A stretch of 64,000 nucleotides of DNA from Fibrobacteria bacterium (GTDB lineage Bacteria; Fibrobacterota; Chitinivibrionia; Chitinivibrionales; FEN-1185), in NCBI GenBank assembly GCA_037447435.1, contig JBBIGR010000016.1, positions 1 to 64,000 of the forward strand, read 5' to 3'. The first letter of the stretch is position 1. The number at the start of each line of letters is the position of its first letter. Of the stretch, positions 1 to 13,443 are shown in pieces. Both the position numbers and the translations under genes were made by a program. The notes under the pieces were generated by a model. It was not told the origin of the DNA. It did not search any database and saw only the letters and a list, made by a program, of their open reading frames with translations.

Positions 1-53
1 TGTACCATGCCGGATCAAACGATAATGGGGTGCCGAATGGGCAAGAATAGGCA
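1..53 (-). mobile_element. probable IS21-family terminal end (element continues off the window)
   Basis: Minus strand reads TGCCTATTCTTGCCC-ATTCGGCA-CCCCATTATCGTTTG-ATCCGGCA: a TG start plus tandem internal repeats, as in IS21/IS408-type ends. It interrupts the ORF starting at 151. Confidence 0.45.
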
Positions 54-233
54 TTCACTTCCAATAACACCTGATATTTCTTCTCACCAGATAAATTCTT
101 CCGCTTACGGGGTGGCTGTTGATTAACTGGGGGCAATTGTCGGTTTTCCATTGTGTTCCCTTTTATCCGCCCGGAAAATGTTTAATACCCAATGCTCTTA
201 TAATTTAGTTTAATTAAACCGGGAAAACGGACA
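54..233 (-). mobile_element. possible IS3-family left end with N-terminus of transposase OrfA, interrupted
   Basis: ATG at 151 with upstream AAGGGA gives MENRQLPPVNQQPPRKRKNLSGEKKYQVLLEV, resembling HTH_Tnp_1 N-termini. Candidate TG-starting end at 233. Confidence 0.35.
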
Positions 234-265
234 TGATCTCAGAAACGGCGGGCGATATGCTTCTG

Positions 266-359
266 AGACAATTTCACATTTGCTTCAAGCTGGATGTTGG
301 CTTTGCCGATGTCATCGTCGAAAAAACGCCAGCCGGTAGCTTCGAGGAGCTTGTTTATT
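266..359 (-). repeat. possible degenerate attC site
   Basis: Imperfect hairpin (aagct..gttggc / gccagc..agctt) just downstream of the kinase gene. GTT is present at 353 but no intact AAC core on the other side. Confidence 0.25.
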
Positions 360-395
360 TTTATGCGGGATTTTGCTTCTTTGGACATAACACTC

Positions 396-1505
396 TCAAT
401 TGAAACGGTTTTCAATCTCTGCCACTAAACCTGCAATAGTATTTGTCGTAAACGAATTGTCTTTTCTCCAACCCGAACTCTTCTCCTTTTCTGCATAGTA
501 TACAGAATGTTTGGTATCAAATTGAATTCTATATTTGATTTGTCCGTATCGAACTGGCAAAGCACCTTCAATACGCCAATCATGAATATCATGCCGTATT
601 GCTGTCATTCTTACAAGAAATTCATTGCAAGTGGAAAAACGAGAAGCCGGATTTGTATTGCATGCTTTCTTAATAGTACGGCGGAGAGGATCGCAAACCC
701 ATGGAGGCAAAGTAGAAATATCTACCATCTTGCCTTTCGCAATAAGCTTCTTTATGCATTCTGATGCGAAAAGTTGTTTGTCAATTGAGTCTTCAGTGTT
801 ATGGTATTTAAGGAGCTGTTTAGCATTTAACCAAGCTGCTTCATCATAGGGAAAGTGTCCGCCAAGAAGCTGAAAGAGAAGAATGCCAATTTGATAAAGG
901 TCACCTGTTATTCCGTATCGTTGATTCAAAACTGATTCTGGCGGCCTGTATGCAAGAGAATGACCAGAACCTGGAACCGTCGTGCTTCCTTCCGGTATTT
1001 GTTTAACAGAGCCAAAATCACCAATTAAGGCCCGTCCAGTATTATTGATCAGAATATTTTGAGCCTTAAGGTCGCGGTGGAGAAGGTTGGCAGTATGCAG
1101 GTGGCTTAATCCTGCCAAGATATCACGAACTAACTCAACTGCCCTTAAATTACCTTGAATTCCAGCACTGATTTCTACATCTAAATCACCTCTTTCATAG
1201 AACGGCGTCAAAAAATACGCATAATCATTATTTACAAAAGAGGCATCTTGAATAGGTATTACATTCTCTGAGTTTATTGCTGCTAAATGCCGGGGTTCAG
1301 TATGATAAGTGGGGTCTCCACTCCAATCATAAAATTTTATAGCTACTTTTTGGCCATGAATTCTATTTCGTCCAAAAAAGAGCCATCCACAAGCTCCTTT
1401 CTGGCTCTGCTTCTCTATTTGAATACTTTGTGATAATTCACGCAGTTTATCTTTAATCGGTTGCGGAACGGCAAGAATATCAAGATTTAAGTTTGGCTGG
1501 TTCAT
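396..1505 (-). CDS. Hanks-type Ser/Thr protein kinase
   Basis: VAIK, HRDLKAQN, DFG, YRPPE and DLYQIG motifs; extra C-terminal domain; overlaps the upstream gene by 4 nt. Confidence 0.9.
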   Translation of the reverse strand: MNQPNLNLDILAVPQPIKDKLRELSQSIQIEKQSQKGACGWLFFGRNRIHGQKVAIKFYDWSGDPTYHTEPRHLAAINSENVIPIQDASFVNNDYAYFLTPFYERGDLDVEISAGIQGNLRAVELVRDILAGLSHLHTANLLHRDLKAQNILINNTGRALIGDFGSVKQIPEGSTTVPGSGHSLAYRPPESVLNQRYGITGDLYQIGILLFQLLGGHFPYDEAAWLNAKQLLKYHNTEDSIDKQLFASECIKKLIAKGKMVDISTLPPWVCDPLRRTIKKACNTNPASRFSTCNEFLVRMTAIRHDIHDWRIEGALPVRYGQIKYRIQFDTKHSVYYAEKEKSSGWRKDNSFTTNTIAGLVAEIENRFN

Positions 1506-1912
1506 GGAAGTGCCGCAAATGATGCTTTAAAGGCATCATGTTGATAATTGTTAATATCAGTTGGAATTGTTACTGGCTTTTTTCTTAGCACAGCTGCAAT
1601 TCTATTGGGAGAGATTAACTCTACAGGGCAGCCATCATAAAGTTGAATAATGCCTTCCAGTTTGAAGCTGGTAGCGCCACCAGCGTATTGTCCCTTTTTA
1701 CTGCGTGACTTGATTACGACTTTTTCACACGTATTCTCACGGAGGTAGGCAAAAATGGCTTCGCGGAATGCACGAATTTCGCTCTGATTTGTGTCGTCAG
1801 CACATGTGATTTTACAGACATTGGATGGAATAAGGCTAAAGCCATTCTTATCGCCGTCCAATGTAATCAAACGAGCATCAGAACCAGCTAATTCAATTCC
1901 GCAAATCTTCAT
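1502..1912 (-). CDS. DUF3010 family protein (RNase H-like fold)
   Basis: MKICGIEL.GS start and KG.YAGGATSFKLEGIIQL motif. Confidence 0.8.
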   Translation of the reverse strand: MKICGIELAGSDARLITLDGDKNGFSLIPSNVCKITCADDTNQSEIRAFREAIFAYLRENTCEKVVIKSRSKKGQYAGGATSFKLEGIIQLYDGCPVELISPNRIAAVLRKKPVTIPTDINNYQHDAFKASFAALP

Positions 1913-2080
1913 TTTGACCTCTCTTCAATTGCATTTGCAGCCCTTAGGACGGGGCGGCTGTCTTAAGGGGGGGCGCTCTTTCTGTTTTATCGATTAAAAA
2001 TAGATTTCACCATTCATTATGGCTTTGCTTTTCTTGTCTTCCCGCCGCCGACTATAATTTCATTCTGCCTGGTTTATTTT

Positions 2081-2219
2081 GCACAACGTTTTGCCAATGG
2101 TGAAGTGCCCGGCGATGGGCGAGTGCCAGCGAAGCGCGGACATGAGCCCTCAAACGCCGGGCATTTGCCTTGTGCCGAGGACGGGCTCCGCCTGCCGCAG
2201 CACCATTGGCATGTTAGCG
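2081..2219 (-). repeat. integron attC site (139 bp)
   Basis: Minus strand CGCTAAC ... GTTGTGC with perfect inner stem TGCCAATGGTG/CACCATTGGCA and further nested stems. Confidence 0.85.
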
Positions 2220-2298
2220 GCTGTGTTTGCGCTGCTACCGCAATGTATTAGCCGCCGATTCGTCTTTGCATTCGGATTTTCTCGCGCCCCTCTTTGCA

Positions 2299-3006
2299 CT
2301 ATTCGCCGCCGCATGGAACTGCGCCGGCCTTAGAATCCGCTTTTTTGTCGTGCTCAATGGGTTCAAGTTTCCATGTCATTCTATTGCGGCTCATTCCGTC
2401 CACTTCAAAGTTTATGATTCTGCATCGCTTATCAGATGGATGTTTCACAATGGCAACATGATCAAATGTAAAATCTTTGCAGATAATACCACAGAATCTA
2501 CCCATATATGGTTTGCCGACAAGATGGCTGCATGTACCGTATTCTTTCCCGCAAATAGAACATTGTTGAAACTTAACAATGGTTCCAGAGCTCATAAAAA
2601 CCTGCGGCGGGAAAACCAATTCCTCAATTAATTCCAGACGCTCCAATTGCTGGATAACATGAGAAAAGCCTTTGTGGGCTCTAACAGCATCGGAAGCAGA
2701 CATCTGAGATGCAACTAGCGCATCCCATGCAGAATCTGCCTTCGATTCCTTTAATAGGACCCACATTTTTAATTCATTTATAAGACAATCGCAAACGCAT
2801 TCAAAGCCTAAGAGCAAATTTGCTAAATCCTCATCGCCCTTTTTTATTGCATCGTGCTTTTTCTTTGAGACCTCTTCCAACAAATTGGTTAACCGAGCTT
2901 GAGCTTCAATTTGCAGGGCAGAATCTCTAGTTATAGAAAGGTAAACCTCGCATTCACGAATTATTTCATTATAGGTTTCATAAAATGGAGCTGTTTGGCT
3001 ATTCAT
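2299..3006 (-). CDS. cassette protein: helical N-terminus plus Zn-ribbon domain resembling a phage prohead protease C-terminus
   Basis: 235-aa ORF with CSICG.....CSH..G..Y.G..C and DHVAIV..P motifs; overlaps the upstream gene. Confidence 0.7.
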   Translation of the reverse strand: MNSQTAPFYETYNEIIRECEVYLSITRDSALQIEAQARLTNLLEEVSKKKHDAIKKGDEDLANLLLGFECVCDCLINELKMWVLLKESKADSAWDALVASQMSASDAVRAHKGFSHVIQQLERLELIEELVFPPQVFMSSGTIVKFQQCSICGKEYGTCSHLVGKPYMGRFCGIICKDFTFDHVAIVKHPSDKRCRIINFEVDGMSRNRMTWKLEPIEHDKKADSKAGAVPCGGE

Positions 3007-3493
3007 TACTTGCCCCTTTTATCACATCTGCAAGGTTAATGAGACCTTCTGGTGGTCCTTGGTAGCTTATTTTCTTACATGTTTTTGATTTTGACCTCTC
3101 TACCACAATTTCTATTTTGACCTCTGGTTTACCGGTAATTCCCTTATAAAAATCAGTCACATAATTTGCAATGACGCCAAGAGCAATCGAAATTAAATGT
3201 GGATTGTGTGAAAGGAGGGCTGATGAAACAAATAGCAACGGAGAAACCCATTCAAAGGCATTATTTTGCACATAAGCAGCTTTTTTGTCAGCAGGCAAAA
3301 TATCAGTCAGTGGAATGCTATTATTCCTAAATAGAGTTCGAACAGTCGCAGATTCTGAAGCATGGCGGAATTCATCAATATTGGCCGCGATCTCGAAATT
3401 TAATGGAAGGATGGCAAAATCAGAAACATTATTGCAGCCTGTAGCATAAAGCTTTTCAGGTACGTCAATGTAATCAATAACATTTATCCCCAT
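2999..3493 (-). CDS. hypothetical cassette protein with a hydrophobic hairpin
   Basis: ATG at 3493 with AGGAGG RBS (the longer ORF start runs through the attC-like hairpin); hydrophobic PLLFVSSALL...LISIALGVIANYV. Confidence 0.75.
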   Translation of the reverse strand: MGINVIDYIDVPEKLYATGCNNVSDFAILPLNFEIAANIDEFRHASESATVRTLFRNNSIPLTDILPADKKAAYVQNNAFEWVSPLLFVSSALLSHNPHLISIALGVIANYVTDFYKGITGKPEVKIEIVVERSKSKTCKKISYQGPPEGLINLADVIKGASNE

Positions 3494-3506
3494 GTTTCCT
3501 CCTTTT

Positions 3507-3571
3507 GCATAACTTGGAAATTTAGCAATTTGCATGTGCTTTCTTTCGCGCATGGAACTGCGCCGTTAATG
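3507..3571 (-). repeat. short attC-like site (65 bp)
   Basis: Minus strand CATTAAC ... GTTATGC enclosing an imperfect stem GCAGTT.CATGCGC/GCACATG.AATTGC, located between two genes. Confidence 0.55.
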
Positions 3572-3578
3572 CACCATT

Positions 3579-3899
3579 TCAGACGCCCTTAATTTTTATT
3601 ACGATTGCTTCTCCTATGAAATCGCCTGACCAAAGAAATAGCTTTGTATTGATTGATATTTTGTCCTTAACCTTATCAGGAAATAGAAACACAATTAACA
3701 ATTCATAGGGAATGCCTTTTTTTATTGATAAATTGTCAGATATCCTAATCCGAACATCCCAACCTTCCTTGGTTGATTTCTCATTAATGCTTACAGGACA
3801 ACCAAAGTAGTTAACATTTTTATAAAGATTCTGAAAATCAAAATCTTTATAAAATGTAACGATGGCGGTTATCTGATAATCAATATTTTCAAATATCAT
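3579..3899 (-). CDS. small beta-rich protein, EF-Tu domain-III-like
   Basis: 106 aa with pattern GCP..GWD.RI..I..G..IVFL.P..LFLWSG..IGEA.V. Confidence 0.6.
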   Translation of the reverse strand: MIFENIDYQITAIVTFYKDFDFQNLYKNVNYFGCPVSINEKSTKEGWDVRIRISDNLSIKKGIPYELLIVFLFPDKVKDKISINTKLFLWSGDFIGEAIVIKIKGV

Positions 3900-4059
3900 A
3901 AAATCGCCTTTTCAAACAAAAAGCAGAGATCATATGATTCATTCGTTTCGATTCCTTTTTTCGCCGCATTTATGCGGCTTATTCCGGGGCGCGATTTAGC
4001 TCTCTAATTATTGCCTTTCTCGGCGGCCTATAATTCATTCAGCGCAAACATTGCCGCTA

Positions 4060-4496
4060 ACTACCCCAAAGTATGCTAGCATACTTTGGGGTAAAATGGA
4101 TCGTATTATGCATATTCAGCATTATAAATCTCAAATTTGAATATCGATGATAAATTTATTGTATCTTTTTTCCAACTCCGTTCCTTTTCCCCCAAATCGC
4201 CTTGTCTTAACTTAACCGATTACGCAACTTCCAATAAATAAAATATCCCTTCCCCTTGTTAATATCGTCCTTCAATACCCACAAAGTCAAATAATTCCGC
4301 TTATTATACCAAATCAATCTTAAGTGTAATCAAACGTTGATTACACCTTAACTAACGCAATGCCAATGCTTTATGAAAAATAGGAAAAATTCGAAAACAT
4401 GCCTTCGTGGCGAAATGGAAGGGTATATTGAATGAAAAAGCTGGAGACGCGGACAAAGAAGAAGTGCAAAAAAGAAGGTCGAGAGTTTTGGGTAGT
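4060..4496. repeat. non-coding array-leader module, copy A (attI/Pc-like, with terminal inverted repeats)
   Basis: Direct repeat of 9181-9837; 4246-4380 is identical to 9366-9500; ends are ACTACCCCAAA and TTTTGGGTAGT; abuts core GTTAGCG. Confidence 0.85.
4303..4346 (-). promoter_or_regulatory. candidate cassette promoter (Pc) with overlapping palindromic operator, copy A
   Basis: Minus strand TTGATT-N19-TATAAT with extended -10 TG; perfect inverted repeat GTGTAATCAA-acg-TTGATTACAC over the -35. Confidence 0.55.
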
Positions 4497-4606
4497 GGAC
4501 ATAAAAGTTGAAAAGCCGTTTTATTTAAATCGATTTCAAAATCCGATATAAAATTTTTAAATGAGTTTCTGAAAAAATCTTAGATTTTTTGGTCAGATTT
4601 GAAATT

Positions 4607-4801
4607 TCATGGATTTATCGATCTTAAATCATAATATCTCGTTTCAGGAGGCGATAAGTTATTATTCTCGTCTTCATCATTTGAACCGGAAAAGACATCT
4701 CTTTTAAAGCATCGAGGTAAAATATCATCCCAAAATGTTATTTTGAATAAATCGGATTTTTGTTCGGTTTCGCCGTTAGTTCCGGATTCTTTTATGCGCA
4801 T
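4607..4801 (-). CDS. small hypothetical protein
   Basis: 64-aa ORF overlapping the stop of the upstream gene. Confidence 0.3.
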   Translation of the reverse strand: MRIKESGTNGETEQKSDLFKITFWDDILPRCFKRDVFSGSNDEDENNNLSPPETRYYDLRSINP

Positions 4802-5898
4802 ACTACACCTCTTTGATAAAAGTCAAGGCGTTCTATACATTTATACATGGTATCGCCGCAAGCTTTGGCCAAATTAACATATGCCAATAAATCGGAACTT
4901 GCGGCAAAAGCGCCATTGGACTTAACGCTAATTTTGATCATACCATAAATTTTCGCTTTTTGCTCGTTATTTAATTGATCGCGTTCATTTGAAATTGGCA
5001 CTACGATTATCCCTTTTTGCTCATTGAACCAATCCAACATGTCTTCATCTAACTTGCAAAGCTTTTTATTTTTTAATTCATGATGACCACTTGGATGCTT
5101 AAAAATAGATCCTTCCGCGCGTTTCTTTAATTTATTAGTAACATACTTTTTTGTGTTTGAAACAATAAAACATCCCGATTCGCTTCCAAGAATATGCGAT
5201 AATGCATACCGATAGATATAGTGCTCTTTTAGCAATATGGGGCGTGAGGTTTTAGTTTCTTGAGGTTTGCTGCTACAAACACAAATAGTATCAAGTTGTG
5301 TATCGCTTTCTTCCAATGCATTAAAAATTTTTGTAACGGTAATTACCTGTTTTTTGTTGCCGCTTTTGTCATATTCGATGCAGTCCGCGAATAATTGGGA
5401 TACATCCGGAGGCGGAAATATTTTTACTACAACATGTGTTTCTTCTTGCGTTGCCTTATGAATGGCCTCTAATAAATTCATTGCGCAATCTTTTGCCAAA
5501 CTTGTTCTCGTTTCATTTATATCAATTCCTATTTTGTTTGTGCCTTTATTTTTTGCTTCATGCCAATGATCGAATAAATACAAATATTTTTCCCTCATTG
5601 TATGACAAATAACATGTGCCCGGCTGGCAAATTCCTGCAAATCATAACCGCTTTGGAGCTTAAATTTTATCATCTTTCCTGCAAGTCCAAGGCATAATAG
5701 AATTAAAGAGAATACAAGGTACCAAAAAAAATGAATTTGATCGGGTGTAGTTAAAACTTTTAAAGTGCTGATTATCGAACCTATTAAGCCGAATACCGAA
5801 CTAAAAATTTCAATTATGCTCACCGGCTTTGAAATTAGAAATCGGCCAAGATGGTGGCTTATTTTATTCACATTAATCCTTGTTTTATTAAATAGCAA
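4792..5898 (-). CDS. membrane-anchored protein with a C-terminal GAF-like domain
   Basis: Two N-terminal hydrophobic helices; GIIVVPI...IYGMIKIS...NGAF...LAKACGD GAF-type ending; TTG start is uncertain. Confidence 0.65.
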   Translation of the reverse strand: MLFNKTRINVNKISHHLGRFLISKPVSIIEIFSSVFGLIGSIISTLKVLTTPDQIHFFWYLVFSLILLCLGLAGKMIKFKLQSGYDLQEFASRAHVICHTMREKYLYLFDHWHEAKNKGTNKIGIDINETRTSLAKDCAMNLLEAIHKATQEETHVVVKIFPPPDVSQLFADCIEYDKSGNKKQVITVTKIFNALEESDTQLDTICVCSSKPQETKTSRPILLKEHYIYRYALSHILGSESGCFIVSNTKKYVTNKLKKRAEGSIFKHPSGHHELKNKKLCKLDEDMLDWFNEQKGIIVVPISNERDQLNNEQKAKIYGMIKISVKSNGAFAASSDLLAYVNLAKACGDTMYKCIERLDFYQRGVVCA

Positions 5899-6170
5899 AA
5901 TGAGAAAATTAAAGTTTTATTTTCAATTATTAAAAACCTAAATTTTAAATTTAACAAAGAATGCAAGTCGTTAGGATTTTAATATTTTAAATTTGCGAGA
6001 TTGTAAGTTTATTTGCCGGTGAATGTTTTAACATAAATATTGGCAGGTAATTAAAACAACAAAAACAATAAAGATATTTTTTAAGTGTAAAGAAATCTTA
6101 TCGACAATGCGTACCAAGAGCTCCGGCAATTTGCCGGTTACCACGCGGACTGTTTTGGAAAACGTCTCAC

Positions 6171-6259
6171 CCGTGCCTTCGAGAGCCTCAGGCGACGGGT
6201 TGTTATTCTATCTGGTGGCCTTGATTTTATCCGGTGGCTGAGGCTCTCGAAGCCACCGG
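6171..6259. repeat. inverted pair of REP-like palindromes
   Basis: CTTCGAGAGCCTCAG (6177) and CTGAGGCTCTCGAAG (6238), each inside its own hairpin. Confidence 0.75.
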
Positions 6260-6361
6260 CAGGGAGTTCCTCTTTCATGAACCATTACTGCGAATTCCAA
6301 TAAACCTTTTGTTTCTTTTTGTTTTTTCTTCTCTGCATCTTATTATAGAGAAATTTATTGA

Positions 6362-6511
6362 TACCAACGTTTCACGCACTGCCGAAGTTGCCGCATTGGC
6401 GACATGACGGTGCCAGCGAAGCGCGGACGGTGACGGAGGCATCAAACGCTGGCAATTTGCCGAAGGCCGAGGACGGGCTTCGCCCGCCGCAGCACAAAGC
6501 GGCTGTTGTAA
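6362..6511 (-). repeat. integron attC site (150 bp)
   Basis: Minus strand TTACAAC ... GTTGGTA; shares GTGCCAGCGAAGCGCGGAC and GCCGAGGACGGGCT.CGCC.GCCGCAGCAC with the 2081 site. Confidence 0.8.
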
Positions 6512-6662
6512 GCAGTGAATTTGCACCCTACCATAGTATTTCTTTTCGCCGCCATCTATGATTTTCATCCTACTTCGTGCCCGATTTCCTCGCCGGGACA
6601 CATGACGTGTGGAGGCGATTTTGCTGAAATGCTGCAAATGATGATTGGTACTGAAAGATACC

Positions 6663-7469
6663 CTAATTCCCTTCGTTATTTTTGTTAGAGAAAAATGGGT
6701 GATTTCCAAAAAATTTGACTGGTAGTGGGATATCGCATGAAATATCCATACTCTTATCAAATATCTCGAATGAAATAGACGCATATTTCGCGGATCTGTA
6801 CATAAAATCAGGTTCAATAGGAATTTTATGTATTTTTGGAACCAAATGCCATTTGTGCATAGGATTTGTGCATGGGGTTGTATTGAAAATACCGATGTGT
6901 TGCCACATGTTATGAGCTACGCCACTGAACGGTACATACGCATGCTTATAAATAGATTCCCTCCCAATCTCCTTTGCCATTTCTCTTGCTGTCATTCCAG
7001 ACCACGCCCCGACATTTACTTCAGTTGCCCAATCAGCGAGCTGACCATTTAGCCATTCTTTCCTAATTTTTATCAATTTATTAAGCTGTTCTGCATCGGA
7101 AGGTTCTGACTCTTCTTGCAATGCTTCTTCAAGAAATTCTATAAATAATTTCTCCTGACCAAGGCCGTATAGTACAAATTTTTTGCACCTCTGTAGAGGG
7201 TCTGCAAGTACCCAACCGAGAGAAATATATGCATCAATTTGACAGCGAAGGAACAATGGAGCAACATGTGCATTCCAGATTGAAGGGGCTTTTACCATTT
7301 CAATTGTTAATGTTGCTTGGCGAGATAGAAGCGCACCGATGCATTCATGTACCCAATTATCATAAATATCGGGCTTGACTGCCTCCCATCGTTTCTCAAA
7401 GCCCAATTGGACATTATCGATATAATCTTTTATAAATGAATCTAACGACTTTTCGGCGTTTTCAGCCAT
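6663..7469 (-). CDS. DUF5677-like (HEPN-like) protein
   Basis: LFLRCQIDAYISL and Y..FSGVAH.MW motifs; all-helical character. Confidence 0.65.
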   Translation of the reverse strand: MAENAEKSLDSFIKDYIDNVQLGFEKRWEAVKPDIYDNWVHECIGALLSRQATLTIEMVKAPSIWNAHVAPLFLRCQIDAYISLGWVLADPLQRCKKFVLYGLGQEKLFIEFLEEALQEESEPSDAEQLNKLIKIRKEWLNGQLADWATEVNVGAWSGMTAREMAKEIGRESIYKHAYVPFSGVAHNMWQHIGIFNTTPCTNPMHKWHLVPKIHKIPIEPDFMYRSAKYASISFEIFDKSMDISCDIPLPVKFFGNHPFFSNKNNEGN

Positions 7470-8208
7470 CAGAATTCTCCTTTACATTCACTTCGCATGC
7501 AGAAAGATGGAAATTATGATTCCAAAAATATTTGGACCAGGTAAAGGTTAATTGGAGCATTGCAAATTCTGCCATTGCACTTGATCGCACAAATCCAGCT
7601 GCACGTTTTGCTTCTTCAGAGTCTGGTGAATTAAAAATAGAATTAATATCGGGCAGATCAATCGTAGAATTAAGCATAATTGCTTTTGTTACAAAGCGAT
7701 ATAGCAGCATTGAGGCATATAAGGCTATTCCCGGAGTTTCGTATTTATTTAGGGCTTTCTTTAAGCAAACTTTCAATCGATCAATTAATTCGCTTTTGTT
7801 ATAAACATTTTCTGGAGGACCAAAAAATTTGATTGGGCATTCATCATAAAGCAGGACTAAGGGAGCGATAGCATTTTGAACTTTACCTAATATGCCTTTT
7901 TTATTTAGTGATTCCGTTAAAGCTAATTTTTGCTCCTGCGTAAATGTGCTGTAAGAGGAAATAAGCGCGAAATTTTGGGGTATTTCTTGATTTTGAATGT
8001 CCTTTGCCGTAACGAATATTTCTTGCTGAATTCTTGCGCTTGGTATATAACCAAAAAGCTCATTCAGAAGAGCAATCCACACAAGTTCAGGAAGTATATC
8101 ATTCACATAGGTTACATTGAAATTCATCTTTGGAATTTGCAGCATCGGGGGGATAAATCGCTTGCCTATTTTTTTATGCCCCTGGAGAATTTGCTTTTTC
8201 TTTTTCAT
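7462..8208 (-). CDS. hypothetical protein, coupled partner of the DUF5677-like gene
   Basis: Likely start MKKKKQILQGHKKIGKRFIPP at 8208; overlaps the next gene by 8 nt. Confidence 0.75.
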   Translation of the reverse strand: MKKKKQILQGHKKIGKRFIPPMLQIPKMNFNVTYVNDILPELVWIALLNELFGYIPSARIQQEIFVTAKDIQNQEIPQNFALISSYSTFTQEQKLALTESLNKKGILGKVQNAIAPLVLLYDECPIKFFGPPENVYNKSELIDRLKVCLKKALNKYETPGIALYASMLLYRFVTKAIMLNSTIDLPDINSIFNSPDSEEAKRAAGFVRSSAMAEFAMLQLTFTWSKYFWNHNFHLSACEVNVKENSDG

Positions 8209-8343
8209 TTTCGGATTATCCTTTTTAGGCTTCTCTAACCCGCATGGACGCGGGTGATTCCTCGGGCACAAAACAAACGATTAAATCTGGTCACCTAAAT
8301 CTTCTTAGGCGGCGTCTATAATTGATTGGTGCAAATTTATTGC

Positions 8344-8423
8344 TTACAACGTTTTGCCGTATGCCTGCTGAAGCTGACTACACCTGACTTTGATGCAGCT
8401 TTGGCAGGCTACGGCTGTTAGCT
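8344..8423 (-). repeat. integron attC site (80 bp)
   Basis: Minus strand AGCTAAC-AGCCGTAGCCTGC ... GCAGGCATACGGC-AAAAC-GTTGTAA with an extrahelical base, 6 nt after the stop codon. Confidence 0.9.
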
Positions 8424-8429
8424 GCTGAA

Positions 8430-9101
8430 TTACCGCTGCTTTCCTCCTGCGCCGCTCTTCTGCCTTATTCTTTTCTTAGTTTCTTTTAATGCCTTCTTGA
8501 TTTTAGCTGGTGTTAACAAGTGAGATTTGCAGTAGTCACAATATGGCAACTTCTTTTTGGCTCTATTTGTTAGTTCTTCAATTCTATTAGGATTTATTAT
8601 TTTTACCTTACAATAGTTACATTTGAAAGAAATCTCATCTGTTTTCCAGAAACCAATGGTGACCTGATACTTCTTTTCCTTTTTAACGAAAGTTATTTCT
8701 GTGTCCATTATTTCATTTTCAGCCCATAATCGAGAAAAAAGGATTGATACATCAAGATTCTTTACTCCATAGAAATCGCATTGATATAGAACTGGGTCTT
8801 TCTGGTATTGTTCAGCGGAAAGAACCGGCAATTTCACCTTATTTCTTATATCATTGAAATCTTCACGGTCACTATCACGATAAATTAGCATTGATATTTG
8901 CTTTGCTTTTAAATCCAAAATGAATTTGCTTACTCCGCCTTCATGAAAGAAGGAATCTCCGAAATATTTCAGAAGATCCTTTCCACCTGAGAAATCAACA
9001 GTATTCAAGTAAGCGTAATATTGTACCACTGCTTTGAAATAGTTTTTAGGCGATCTGTCTTCTTCATCATAACGGAATTCTTTATGTAAAGTGAATTTCA
9101 T
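8430..9101 (-). CDS. hypothetical cassette protein
   Basis: 223-aa ORF with a purine-rich RBS region; FHEG motif and C-terminal CxxC pairs. Confidence 0.75.
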   Translation of the reverse strand: MKFTLHKEFRYDEEDRSPKNYFKAVVQYYAYLNTVDFSGGKDLLKYFGDSFFHEGGVSKFILDLKAKQISMLIYRDSDREDFNDIRNKVKLPVLSAEQYQKDPVLYQCDFYGVKNLDVSILFSRLWAENEIMDTEITFVKKEKKYQVTIGFWKTDEISFKCNYCKVKIINPNRIEELTNRAKKKLPYCDYCKSHLLTPAKIKKALKETKKRIRQKSGAGGKQR

Positions 9102-9180
9102 TCTTCGGCCTACCTTTTTCCCTTTTATTTGCCTTTCTTAGCGGCGCATCTTCCTTCTTGCAGCGGTAATCTTGCAGCTA

Positions 9181-9837
9181 ACTACCGAAAGTATGCTAGC
9201 AGACTTTCGTCAAAATGACATCTATTATACATATTCGGAATTATAAATCTCAAATTTGAATATCGATGAAAAATTTATTGGATCTTTTTTCCAACTCCAT
9301 TCCTCTTCCCCCAAATAGCCTTGTCTTAACTTAATCTATTACGCAATCTCCACCAAACCCAAACTTCCCTTCCCCTTGTTAATATCGTCCTTCAATACCC
9401 ACAAAGTCAAATAATTCCGCTTATTATACCAAATCAATCTTAAGTGTAATCAAACGTTGATTACACCTTAACTAACGCAATGCCAATGCTTTATGAAAAA
9501 AAGGAAAAATTCGAAAACATGCCGTCGTGGCGAAACGGAAGGGTATATTCAATCAAAATTGTTTTTTTTTAAGTTATTCTTTTTTCCACACGCGAAGGAA
9601 AAAGACTTTTCGAATTTTTCAAAAAAGCCTTCATCGATGCCCAATATAAAAAAGATTGCAAAATTACCTGACAAGAATTGGAATACCAAATCGAGCACTT
9701 GGTGAGCGACTATAAGTAATTCATATTCTTTAGAGAAGGAAGATAAGGGGATCTTCAATATTTGGGCGCTAAGGTGAAAAAGCCGGAGACGCTGACAAAG
9801 AAGAAGTGCAAAGAGAAGATCGGGAGTTTTGGGTAGT
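9181..9837. repeat. non-coding array-leader module, copy B (with about 220 bp extra internal sequence)
   Basis: Aligns to 4060-4435 over 9181-9555 and to 4433-4496 over 9775-9837; abuts core GTTAGCT. Confidence 0.85.
9423..9466 (-). promoter_or_regulatory. candidate cassette promoter (Pc) with palindromic operator, copy B
   Basis: Identical to 4303-4346. Confidence 0.55.
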
Positions 9838-9838
9838 C

Positions 9839-10516
9839 TTATCCTATTGCTTCAAAACATTTGTCAATTTGATTCTTTGTAAATTGAACAATTAGCTTTC
9901 CTAGGTGAAAAACTTCAGTTGAAAATAATTTGGGTTGTTCATTATCAATCTCAAAATTAATTTCAGAGTTATGAATTGCTGATTGGATCTCAAGGGGCAT
10001 TTTCCTAATATCGAAACCACCCTTTATTTTAAAATCTATATAATCTTTGAAGCTAATACATTTTGAAACTTCTTCGGAATTAGGCTTTTCTTGAAAAAAG
10101 TGATAATAAAGCCAAATTTCAAATGATGGATTACTTTGTGCTACAAACCAACTTTTATGTTTATCGTTTTTTTCTTTTACATAAGATTTTAATTCGTTTA
10201 TTTTGTTATCTTCATTCCACCTATCGGTATCTATAACGAACCATACCTCATCTTCATATTCTTTACTTAGTTTGTAAGTAGCATCAATTTCATCATTGCC
10301 AAAAAATCGTGCATTTGCATTATTCTTTAGTTTTTCCGGATCAGTTTTACCGTCTTCACTTGGAATTGGTATTATATCAATATTTGAAGATAAGCCTTGG
10401 AAAAAAATAAAATAATCGACTTCCCTTTTCTGACCTTCGCAAAAAATATAGATTTTTTTAGCGGTTTTAAAAGGTTCAAGCTTCTGATACAATTTATTAC
10501 GAGTTAAGTATCTCAT
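9839..10516 (-). CDS. rloB: RloB family protein (AbiLii-like, TOPRIM-like)
   Basis: IFCEG..E..YF, VWFVIDTD, SNPSFEIWL.YHF and STEV..L motifs. Confidence 0.9.
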   Translation of the reverse strand: MRYLTRNKLYQKLEPFKTAKKIYIFCEGQKREVDYFIFFQGLSSNIDIIPIPSEDGKTDPEKLKNNANARFFGNDEIDATYKLSKEYEDEVWFVIDTDRWNEDNKINELKSYVKEKNDKHKSWFVAQSNPSFEIWLYYHFFQEKPNSEEVSKCISFKDYIDFKIKGGFDIRKMPLEIQSAIHNSEINFEIDNEQPKLFSTEVFHLGKLIVQFTKNQIDKCFEAIG

Positions 10517-10520
10517 AGGG

Positions 10521-11858
10521 TTACCAATTTAAATCTTTAAAGTTGGCTAAAAATGGAATTCCTCCATATCTACCATTTAAATATCCTTTTTCAATATCAA
10601 TGGTATTATGAATTTTGAAGTCACTTAAAGAATAAATTTTAGATGATCCATCACAATCTTTTTGAGTGAACCATATTTCATCGGGTCTGATAAATTTCTG
10701 GTCAAGTAAGTTTGATTCGTGGGTTGTAAAAATTAATTGCCCTTTAACATTTTCATCGAGAGCTATTTTAGAAATTATTTCTTTTATTGTAATTGGATGA
10801 ATACTTCTTTCAATTTCATCAATTAAAATTACCTTGTTATTACAAATGATTCCTTGAAAAGCAGGAATATAATCAATTAATCTTTTGGTCCCATCCGATT
10901 CTTGACTTAAATTAAATTCGATATCAACATCATTTAAATTTTTATGACTTGTAATTAGCCTTTTAATCACCATTTCATTATTTTCGTAAACCGCTGTTAT
11001 TTCTTCACCTGTTTCTCCATTAGTAAGTGCTAAATGATTTTTTTGAGAATTTTTTAAATTTTCTAACATGTCTTTTACGAATTGTCCATTCTCTTTATCA
11101 AAAAAATCCTCAGATTTCTTTTTTTCTATTTCAATTTTTGAAATTCCAGTATTTAAACTTGAAATAAAGTTATTAGCAAAGTCTTTTGTATCTGATTCTT
11201 TATCAAAGAGATGTGCAATGCAAATAGGTTTTGAATCTGGTTTAATAATAACTAATGTATTTTTAAACCAATCAAAAGCAAATTGAATACTTTTAAAATC
11301 TTCTGGATATTTTTTACTTAAGAATGTAATTAATAAATCATCTTTTTGAATTAATTTATCAGATAACACTTCTGTGAAGAGTTTTTCCTTATCAGTTTTA
11401 TAATACTCCTTATAAAAAACAATATTTTTTAAACCATCTTCGCAAGTTCTTTCAAAAATCAAAGTGTCTTCATCTTTCGAACTTTCGGCTAAATACTCGT
11501 TTAAAATTTCATTGTGATCAAAAGTCAGAGTATAATAATAAGCTTTTCCGTTAGAAATAAATTCAATCGCAAGTGAAATAGGCAAAGAATAATTTTTATC
11601 ATCAAGTTTAAATTTTAAATCGTCGGAATTTATTATGAGCTTCCCATTTAAAACCATTTTCCTTAATAGAGAAATAGATTTTATCAAGTTGGATTTACCA
11701 GAGCCATTTGCACCATAAATAGCACTATATCGTAAAATCTCAAAATTTCCACTTTTTATTTTATGATGCTCTAGTCTTTGGGTTTTATTCGGGAATAAAT
11801 TAAACTCTGTTTCGGATTTAAAAGAAAAAATGTTTTTGGCAACGAAGCTTATTAACAT
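10521..11858 (-). CDS. rloA: RloA/AbiLi-like ABC-type (AAA_21) ATPase
   Basis: GANGSGKS Walker A, ESDGT signature, LIDEIERSIHP, FTTH, YLNGRYGGIP. Confidence 0.9.
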   Translation of the reverse strand: MLISFVAKNIFSFKSETEFNLFPNKTQRLEHHKIKSGNFEILRYSAIYGANGSGKSNLIKSISLLRKMVLNGKLIINSDDLKFKLDDKNYSLPISLAIEFISNGKAYYYTLTFDHNEILNEYLAESSKDEDTLIFERTCEDGLKNIVFYKEYYKTDKEKLFTEVLSDKLIQKDDLLITFLSKKYPEDFKSIQFAFDWFKNTLVIIKPDSKPICIAHLFDKESDTKDFANNFISSLNTGISKIEIEKKKSEDFFDKENGQFVKDMLENLKNSQKNHLALTNGETGEEITAVYENNEMVIKRLITSHKNLNDVDIEFNLSQESDGTKRLIDYIPAFQGIICNNKVILIDEIERSIHPITIKEIISKIALDENVKGQLIFTTHESNLLDQKFIRPDEIWFTQKDCDGSSKIYSLSDFKIHNTIDIEKGYLNGRYGGIPFLANFKDLNW

Positions 11859-12044
11859 ATTAATACCTTTCCGTGGGAATTTCACGCCAAATCCCAGTTA
11901 AAATAGTATTTTGCATTGCATTAATCAAAATATACAATGGAAACGTGAATTTGACACGGTTAATTGCTATAAATAACAATTGAAATTCTTTTATAAATAG
12001 TTAAAAATTCCGGATATTCGTTGCATTATTATTCTACCATAGCA

Positions 12045-13028: not shown

Positions 13029-13443
13029 AAAACGTACCTTGCAGGGCCATAAAAAAAATGTAGAAGGTCAAACAGTACCTTGCACGGCCAGCTCATTATT
13101 GCGGATAAGAATGCAAGACCTTGTTTGGACAATTCCATTATTGGAGTTGCGAAAACAAGGTCTCGCACGGCCATTTCATTATTGGAGTTGCGAATTCAGT
13201 ACCTTGTTTGGCGAACTGCATTATTGCAAATAAGAAAACAGTACCTCGCAGGACCATTAAAAATTTTGCGGAGTCAAAAACAGACCTCGCAAGGGCATCA
13301 AAAATTTTGCGGAGTCAAAAACGGACCTCGCAGGACCATCAAAAATTTTGGGGAATAAAAAACGGACCTCGCAAGGGCTTCAAAAATTCTGCGGAATAAA
13401 AAACGGACCTTACAAGGCCAACAAAAATTTTGCGGATTAAAAA
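13029..13443. repeat. degenerate tandem repeat, 10 units of 41-42 bp
   Basis: ACCT anchor at 13036, 13077, 13118, 13160 (variant GTCT), 13201, 13243, 13284, 13325, 13366, 13407. Confidence 0.9.

Follow-up and report, generated by a model that had tools for sequence, protein, structure and literature searches.

Long complementary ends of a gene cassette in a Fibrobacteria genome, a likely member of an integron-like system served by a recombinase other than IntI

Two described systems come closest to the locus considered here. In integrons, complementarity between the ends of an attC site extends over 9-11 nt (PMC2727003), the insertion carried by IntI has been called essential for integron function (PMC8138268), and the creation of cassettes has been named an outstanding question (PMC8618304). 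In the Bacteroidales, rAID-1 consists of an XerD-like recombinase located 5' of co-directional low-GC genes, with intergenic repeats described as 'reminiscent of integrons'; it is defined by a recombinase more than 44% identical to BF9343_RS08045 and by at least two co-directional downstream genes with a GC content of 41% or less (10.1101/471110).

The locus lies in a stretch of 64,000 nucleotides from a Fibrobacteria bacterium (hereafter, the window). Positions 6365-8350 are read here, with moderate confidence, as a gene cassette whose ends, complementary over about 22 bases, would be the split outer arm of a single-stranded site for an integron-like recombinase without the IntI insertion. 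A full-text literature search, with most subscription journals and the rAID-1 supplementary motif figure outside its reach, returned no description of such an extended stem.

The array and the paired ends of cassette B

A scan of the window for inverted repeats anchored on GTT...AAC and lying within 9 kb (score of 23, threshold at least 18) returns three pairs: 2213/4061 with a score of 20, 6505/8350 with 21 and 8417/9182 with 20. Each of 12 resampled windows gives 0-2 pairs at or above 18, and 0 of the 12 has any pair at or above 20. The pairs delimit three minus-strand units: A (9182-8417), B (8350-6505) and C (4061-2213). Each has an AAC end followed by a site that closes in C-GTT, which is the start of the next unit; the GC content of the cargo region is about 38%. 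Cassette A (8417..9182, minus; 20/23) lies upstream of B and has the same architecture, and its hairpin site (8344..8423, minus; z -5.3) provides the C-G|TT junction where B starts. Cassette C (2213..4061, minus; 20/23), also of this architecture, is followed by a hairpin site at 2081-2219, which folds with a z of about -3, and by a fourth start at 2087. Cassettes A and C begin behind two copies of a 380-bp region, at 9183..9558 (minus) and 4062-4440, which are 91% identical to each other; the former is 82% identical to a copy on contig C58. Identity between the copies stops at TA-GTT, and the region is read as a putative insertion (attI-like) site.

A region of 180-380 bp with two palindromes is dispersed over at least eight contigs of this genome (the window, C58, C30, C93, C15, C2, C26 and C44). 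Several of its copies adjoin a gene family of 257-259 aa, cassette-like starts lie behind it on C58 and C93, and a palindrome like these lies behind the insertion-less recombinase of C10; a DNA search of seven relatives from the family did not find the region. Within cassette C a 17-bp end-side motif recurs at 2310-2326 and 3549-3565, and this cassette may be a fusion of two. An Rfam search of positions 1-12000 gave a single match at chance level.

Cassette B (6365..8350, minus) starts with G|TT at 8350, spans two genes and a hairpin site, and reaches the next G at 6368; its GTT-to-AAC length is 1846 bp. The complementary bases common to 8350(-) and 6505(+) number 10+10+7+8: GTTGTAAGCA is present at 6505(+) and 8350(-), AATTTGCACC at 6518(+) and 8337(-), CGCCGCC at 6547(+) and 8314(-), and GTGCCCGA at 6577(+) and 8269(-); neither GTTGTAAGCA nor AATTTGCACC occurs elsewhere in the 64-kb window. 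The first-pass annotation had listed these four segments, and every one is found in its place, as are the loops of 19 nt on the end side (6505 arm) and 13 nt on the start side (8350 arm) that precede the GC clamp. The start arm (8328..8350, minus) comprises the GTT arm at positions 1-9, a conserved AAT at positions 10-12 and an outer 10-bp stem; it is complementary to the end arm (6505..6527, plus) at 21 of 23 positions. The GC clamp occupies 8308..8314 (minus), after the 13-nt loop, and 6547..6553 (plus), and the fourth complementary segment occupies 8262..8269 (minus) and 6577..6584 (plus). The same annotation described a 10-3-10 geometry, of which the paired segments stand and the '3-nt loop' does not: its middle base is paired, the mismatches on either side of it are A/C in the top strand and T-G in the bottom one, and the bottom-strand fold runs paired straight across both. 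The family as a whole has a geometry of 9 bp, 2 mismatches and about 11 bp rather than 10-3-10. The annotation further stated that the unit at 2213-4061 has the same geometry with a different paired sequence. The strand opposite the 13-nt start loop reads TATAAT; a TTGTCT/TTGCCT-like hexamer found by eye lies only about 12-13 nt away, and because of this spacing the sequence is not called a promoter.

The inner part of the site of cassette B (6368..6504, minus; 136 nt) does not close as a single stem (z -0.78), and over 100 nt its right portion matches a site from a same-genus genome with 88% identity; for these two reasons it looks hybrid or damaged.

The cargo consists of two co-directional genes. 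Gene 1 (7462..8208, minus) likely starts at the ATG at 8208, after an AGGA motif, the longest reading frame starting from TTG 8271, and gene 2 (6663..7469, minus) encodes a DUF5677 protein of 268 aa (E 5.5e-14). Gene 1 weakly matches the N-terminal half of the PADLOC DitA profile (E 1e-9, profile 3-238 of 486) and gene 2 the C-terminal half (E 1.2e-9, profile 307-447), so that the two cover the profile halves in order; an Atlas search with gene 1 gave no usable match. DitA is part of what we take to be the Aditi anti-phage system. Aditi has been described as two proteins of unknown function (10.1101/2022.05.11.491447), and the cargo of cassette B is a defence candidate, no more. An RloB and AAA_21 gene pair with a GC content of 26-28% adjoins the array at 9839-11885 and matches PADLOC AbiLi/AbiLii, Ser/Thr kinase and DUF3010 genes lie within the fourth unit (396-1912), and the region around the array looks like a defence island. 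Tandem repeats of 41 nt and 83 nt are found at 13070-13439, beside a DUF6261 gene.

Covariation and strand preference across related cassettes

Window-type cassettes were collected from 43 metagenome loci obtained with a start-motif scan and from sequence downstream of Xer-like recombinases in relatives. The 91 raw matches, less 5 dropped by eye and with duplicates removed, give 77 distinct cassettes; this set was chosen on the end match, and the A at position 10/11 and the flanking bases were imposed by the filter. Among these 77 cassettes chosen on end match, the outer stem (positions 13-22) agrees with its own partner at 9.04 of 10 positions versus 2.79 of 10 for other partners, and at positions 13-20 the match is 91-96% for own partners versus 25-35% for others. 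Among the 77 the match drops to 32% at position 10 and 3% at position 11, and pairing beyond position 23 is at background level. A GC clamp of at least 6 is present in 77% of own pairs versus 12% of other pairs; the fourth complementary segment, found in a minority of cassettes, is present in 23% versus 3%. The stem is nearly free in sequence (65 distinct 8-mers among the 77 starts), and the core is looser than GTTRRRY past position 4.

The earlier proposal that pairing covaries across cassettes holds in this larger set. The 29 stems that are less than 60% identical to one another match their own partner at 8.9 of 10 positions and other partners at 2.5 of 10, and among related stems both members are paired at 155 of the 197 columns in which they differ. 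When cassettes are defined by position alone, through a by-eye tiling of starts that follow a site, about 32 of 37 have matching ends; the ends of the other 5 are non-matching or partial, and 6 further starts have no recognisable end. An unfiltered rerun upholds the pattern less cleanly, 30 of its 39 pairs having A at position 11. A search of 81 genomes of the order with the site pattern gave results near the reversed control, mostly noise. At the metagenome loci L110, L115, L135 and L128, and at others, many cassette starts lie behind neither a hairpin site nor an attI-like region, which suggests insertion at secondary sites.

The mismatches have a strand preference. On the end side, position 11 is G in 70 of the 77 cassettes and faces A, which makes the mismatch A/C in the top strand and T-G in the bottom one. 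At positions 13-22, mismatches that are G-T on the bottom strand number 21, versus 8 that are G-U on the top strand, in sequences that are not independent of one another. With DNA parameters only, folding of the circle junction favours the bottom strand over the top strand at 52 of 54 sites. For cassette B the bottom strand has a small advantage with 30-nt flanks (-49.5 versus -47.3 for the top strand), and this is gone with 100-nt flanks (-64.7 versus -65.5). Taken together, the T-G at position 11, the excess of G-T and the stability of the bottom strand point to a DNA bottom-strand substrate, as for attC, rather than to RNA pairing or simple copying.

Across the same 54 sites, an end matches the start of its own cassette at 9.0 of 10 positions versus 4.0 of 10 for the start of the next cassette, and folding of the circle junction is 14 kcal/mol more favourable than that of the array junction. 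In 29 of the 54 an asymmetric 1x4 or 1x5 bulge, with 1 nt on the left side and 4-5 nt on the right, precedes the first inner stem. Inner parts are 34 to 274 nt long except for one of about 19 nt; in this last site (L198:4129-4148) the 19 nt lie between AAC and GTT, two cassettes of one end family flank it, and it is possibly a deletion product.

Recombinases, cassette movement and a model

Downstream of 13 of 18 insertion-less recombinase loci, window-type cassette starts are found within 800 bp and in the same direction; the 18 are those with at least 2 kb downstream, IS91-paired recombinases being set aside. These array-linked, Xer-like recombinases of relatives lack the IntI insertion of about 30 aa, and in a quick tree the insertion-less recombinases form a clade apart from IntI (SH-aLRT 97 and 99). 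In the test loci (1.03 Mb), 62 of the 91 raw matches score at least 19; the same detector, run on 96 IntI loci (1.04 Mb), yields 9 matches at 17-18 and none at or above 19. An IntI control of 69 cassettes from 24 of 88 loci, with same-genus arrays included, gives 3.6 for own partners versus 3.6 for others (best of three registers), and end complementarity in these 69 is lost after position 9-11; the IntI-linked arrays of the same genus have canonical attC sites.

The genome itself has an intact IntI on contig C10, its upstream region cut by the contig end. In its sole clear recombinase of the insertion-less clade (G000:C10:112938-114128; L002:1285-2475), which falls on a long branch, Thr replaces the first catalytic Arg, and no array follows the gene. 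Searches of the window by tblastn and with profiles, using 91 IntI and 47 insertion-less proteins, found neither a recombinase nor a remnant, and a remnant suspected by eye at 9590-9840 or 4440-4520 received no support from them. No confirmed relative of the recombinase was found in viral contigs, and none in phage records at E 1e-40. Homologues on Bacteroidota plasmids are about 40% identical to the G004 protein; their arrays share positions 1-12, including the A/G pattern at 11, and have a short outer stem, so the 10-bp outer stem is not needed everywhere. On a Chryseobacterium plasmid (L222, NZ_CP041688.1), IS110 elements and the gene of a group II intron reverse transcriptase interrupt an array of this kind. 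In G073 (at three places) and in G049 (L168, L172, L173 and L179), a recombinase and an IS91-type transposase form a pair with window-type cassettes behind it, which suggests that arrays are mobilised by or into IS91-type elements. At L176:1776-1806, right after the recombinase, there is a minimal unit that consists of a 9-bp GTT arm, about 11 nt and the complement, with no cargo.

Metagenomic contig L131 equals L134 minus one 334-bp unit, with 122 of 122 upstream and 119 of 119 downstream bases identical and the join at C-GTT, and identical copies of a 2645-bp cassette have two different upstream neighbours; this gain or loss and the change of neighbour map to C-GTT within 1-4 shared bases. 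Neither a circle junction nor an empty site was found in three contig sets, one of which may be the origin of the present sequence, and contigs cannot show the absence of such forms. In 14 cassette pairs both ends are common and the cargo has no similarity by blastn, similarity being limited to the terminal 30-130 bp or not detectable. Seven of the 77 cassettes are only 145-285 bp long, and gene-less cassettes occur. The paired ends appear to be a reusable frame filled with different genes. It had been noted earlier that the pairing may bear on how cassettes are created; the reuse of end pairs around unrelated cargo suggests such a link.

A mechanism can be proposed from these features. The recombinase would cut the folded bottom strand at AA|C and would bind an arm of Xer length, about 11 bp (TT..AAT), without the insertion by which IntI reads extrahelical bases. 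The T-T/T-G distortion at positions 10-11 would be used for strand choice, and the 10-bp stem of free sequence, together with the GC clamp, would keep this arm shut. The crossover would divide the stem between the two ends of the cassette, so that it is whole only when a cassette's own ends meet: complete once the cassette is an excised circle or loops out as a single strand, and largely missing between neighbours in an array. Insertion would therefore be favoured over loss. Since the circle joins end, hairpin and start as one non-coding piece, the three would be inherited together, and because they are contiguous there we infer that they travel as one frame in which the cargo is exchanged; new cassettes would arise through a change of cargo inside an existing frame. 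Cassette B itself is orphaned, with no recombinase in its vicinity, and since its inner hairpin also seems damaged it is probably immobile now.

Other explanations of the complementarity are at hand. It could be the scar of templated creation, in which fold-back synthesis or template switching copied one end from the other and the stem has no role in recombination; a stem that is nearly free in sequence and still so closely matched at positions 13-20 is indeed much for point mutation alone. However, copying would wipe out the conserved mismatches at positions 10-11, the mismatches are biased to bottom-strand G-T, and one pair of ends is reused around unrelated cargo rather than made anew. Such a scar is therefore unlikely, and where the first-pass annotation had left the structure 'selected or templated', these mismatches give selection the better support and templating less. 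Pairing might instead act in RNA, with the 5' and 3' ends of a transcript joined for processing, stability or reverse transcription. All the segments are in untranslated flanks, the clamp and the fourth segment are enriched in own pairs, and the top strand of cassette B can include all four segments when folded with the junction cut 3 nt off. Yet what the transcribed strand reads as A/C at the conserved mismatch is T-G on its complement, and the stem starts exactly at the crossover core. On these grounds, with strand energies compared under DNA parameters only, a role in RNA is very unlikely.

The units could also be ordinary integron cassettes, a CALIN served in trans by the IntI of this genome, with a lineage-specific longer match of the R box. 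The AAC...GTT cores, the hairpin sites and the GTT boundary are as in integrons, and the intact IntI on C10 with its truncated upstream region would be at hand. This is quite unlikely, because the IntI-linked arrays of the same genus have a different, canonical site with no pairing past position 9-11, strong window-type cassettes are absent from the 96 IntI loci, and the asymmetric inner bulge is unlike the canonical spacer. A broader proposal, that there is a second widespread class of integrons in which insertion-less recombinases act on a private 22-bp barcode stem in each cassette, with directional recombination as the result and cassettes built by loading genes into empty end-hairpin-start frames, is offered tentatively, as a possibility on the doubtful side. 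If true, it would open a directly testable path to the question of cassette creation.

Comparison with Xer sites, integrons and rAID-1

The cassette start, TT(R)N6(A/C)AT, resembles what we take to be the 11-bp XerD arm. The dif site differs in that it is fixed and double-stranded; the arm proposed here would join two strands of different origin and would be variable in sequence.

The likeness to integrons and CALINs lies in the GTT start, the AAC and hairpin end, the arrays behind an insertion site, the low-GC cargo and the inferred bottom-strand substrate. As at the G|TT of a GTTRRRY core, the boundary falls at C-GTT, where gain and loss map. The differences are several. The ends match over about 22 positions with a fixed internal mismatch, compared with 9-11 nt for attC. 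In place of R''-spacer-L''/L'-spacer-R' with an extrahelical L'' base, the inner spacer is an asymmetric bulge. Where an integron has an insertion-bearing, divergent integrase beside attI, the window has none, and the array-linked recombinases of relatives lack the insertion and lie upstream of, and co-directional with, the array. A CALIN is a cluster of attC sites with no integrase nearby; the window has three hairpin sites and no recombinase, and these sites are not canonical attC. The likely home of cassette B is an integron-like gene-capture system with a simpler recombinase in place of IntI. If so, the system would show hairpin recombination without the IntI insertion, and a search centred on IntI would leave its cassette pools, which here include a DitA-like defence candidate, unconnected to their recombinase. 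The ends have the length and variability needed to trace the origin of a cassette, and the reusable-frame route is testable because one end pair can be found around unrelated genes and frames without a gene occur.

With rAID-1, the arrays of relatives share the layout of a recombinase followed by co-directional genes; they are set beside it by layout, not by recombinase identity. They differ in that the accessible portion of the rAID-1 description defines no cassette boundaries, hairpins or end pairing (10.1101/471110). The host here is outside the Bacteroidales, and the cargo consists of DUF5677/DitA-like and unknown proteins, not of toxin immunity genes as in the interbacterial immunity cargo of rAID-1. 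The mechanism proposed above, if true, would supply one for rAID-1-like arrays. The array system is integron-like in its working, yet it falls outside what defines the systems of IntI, and its layout in relatives is that of rAID-1.
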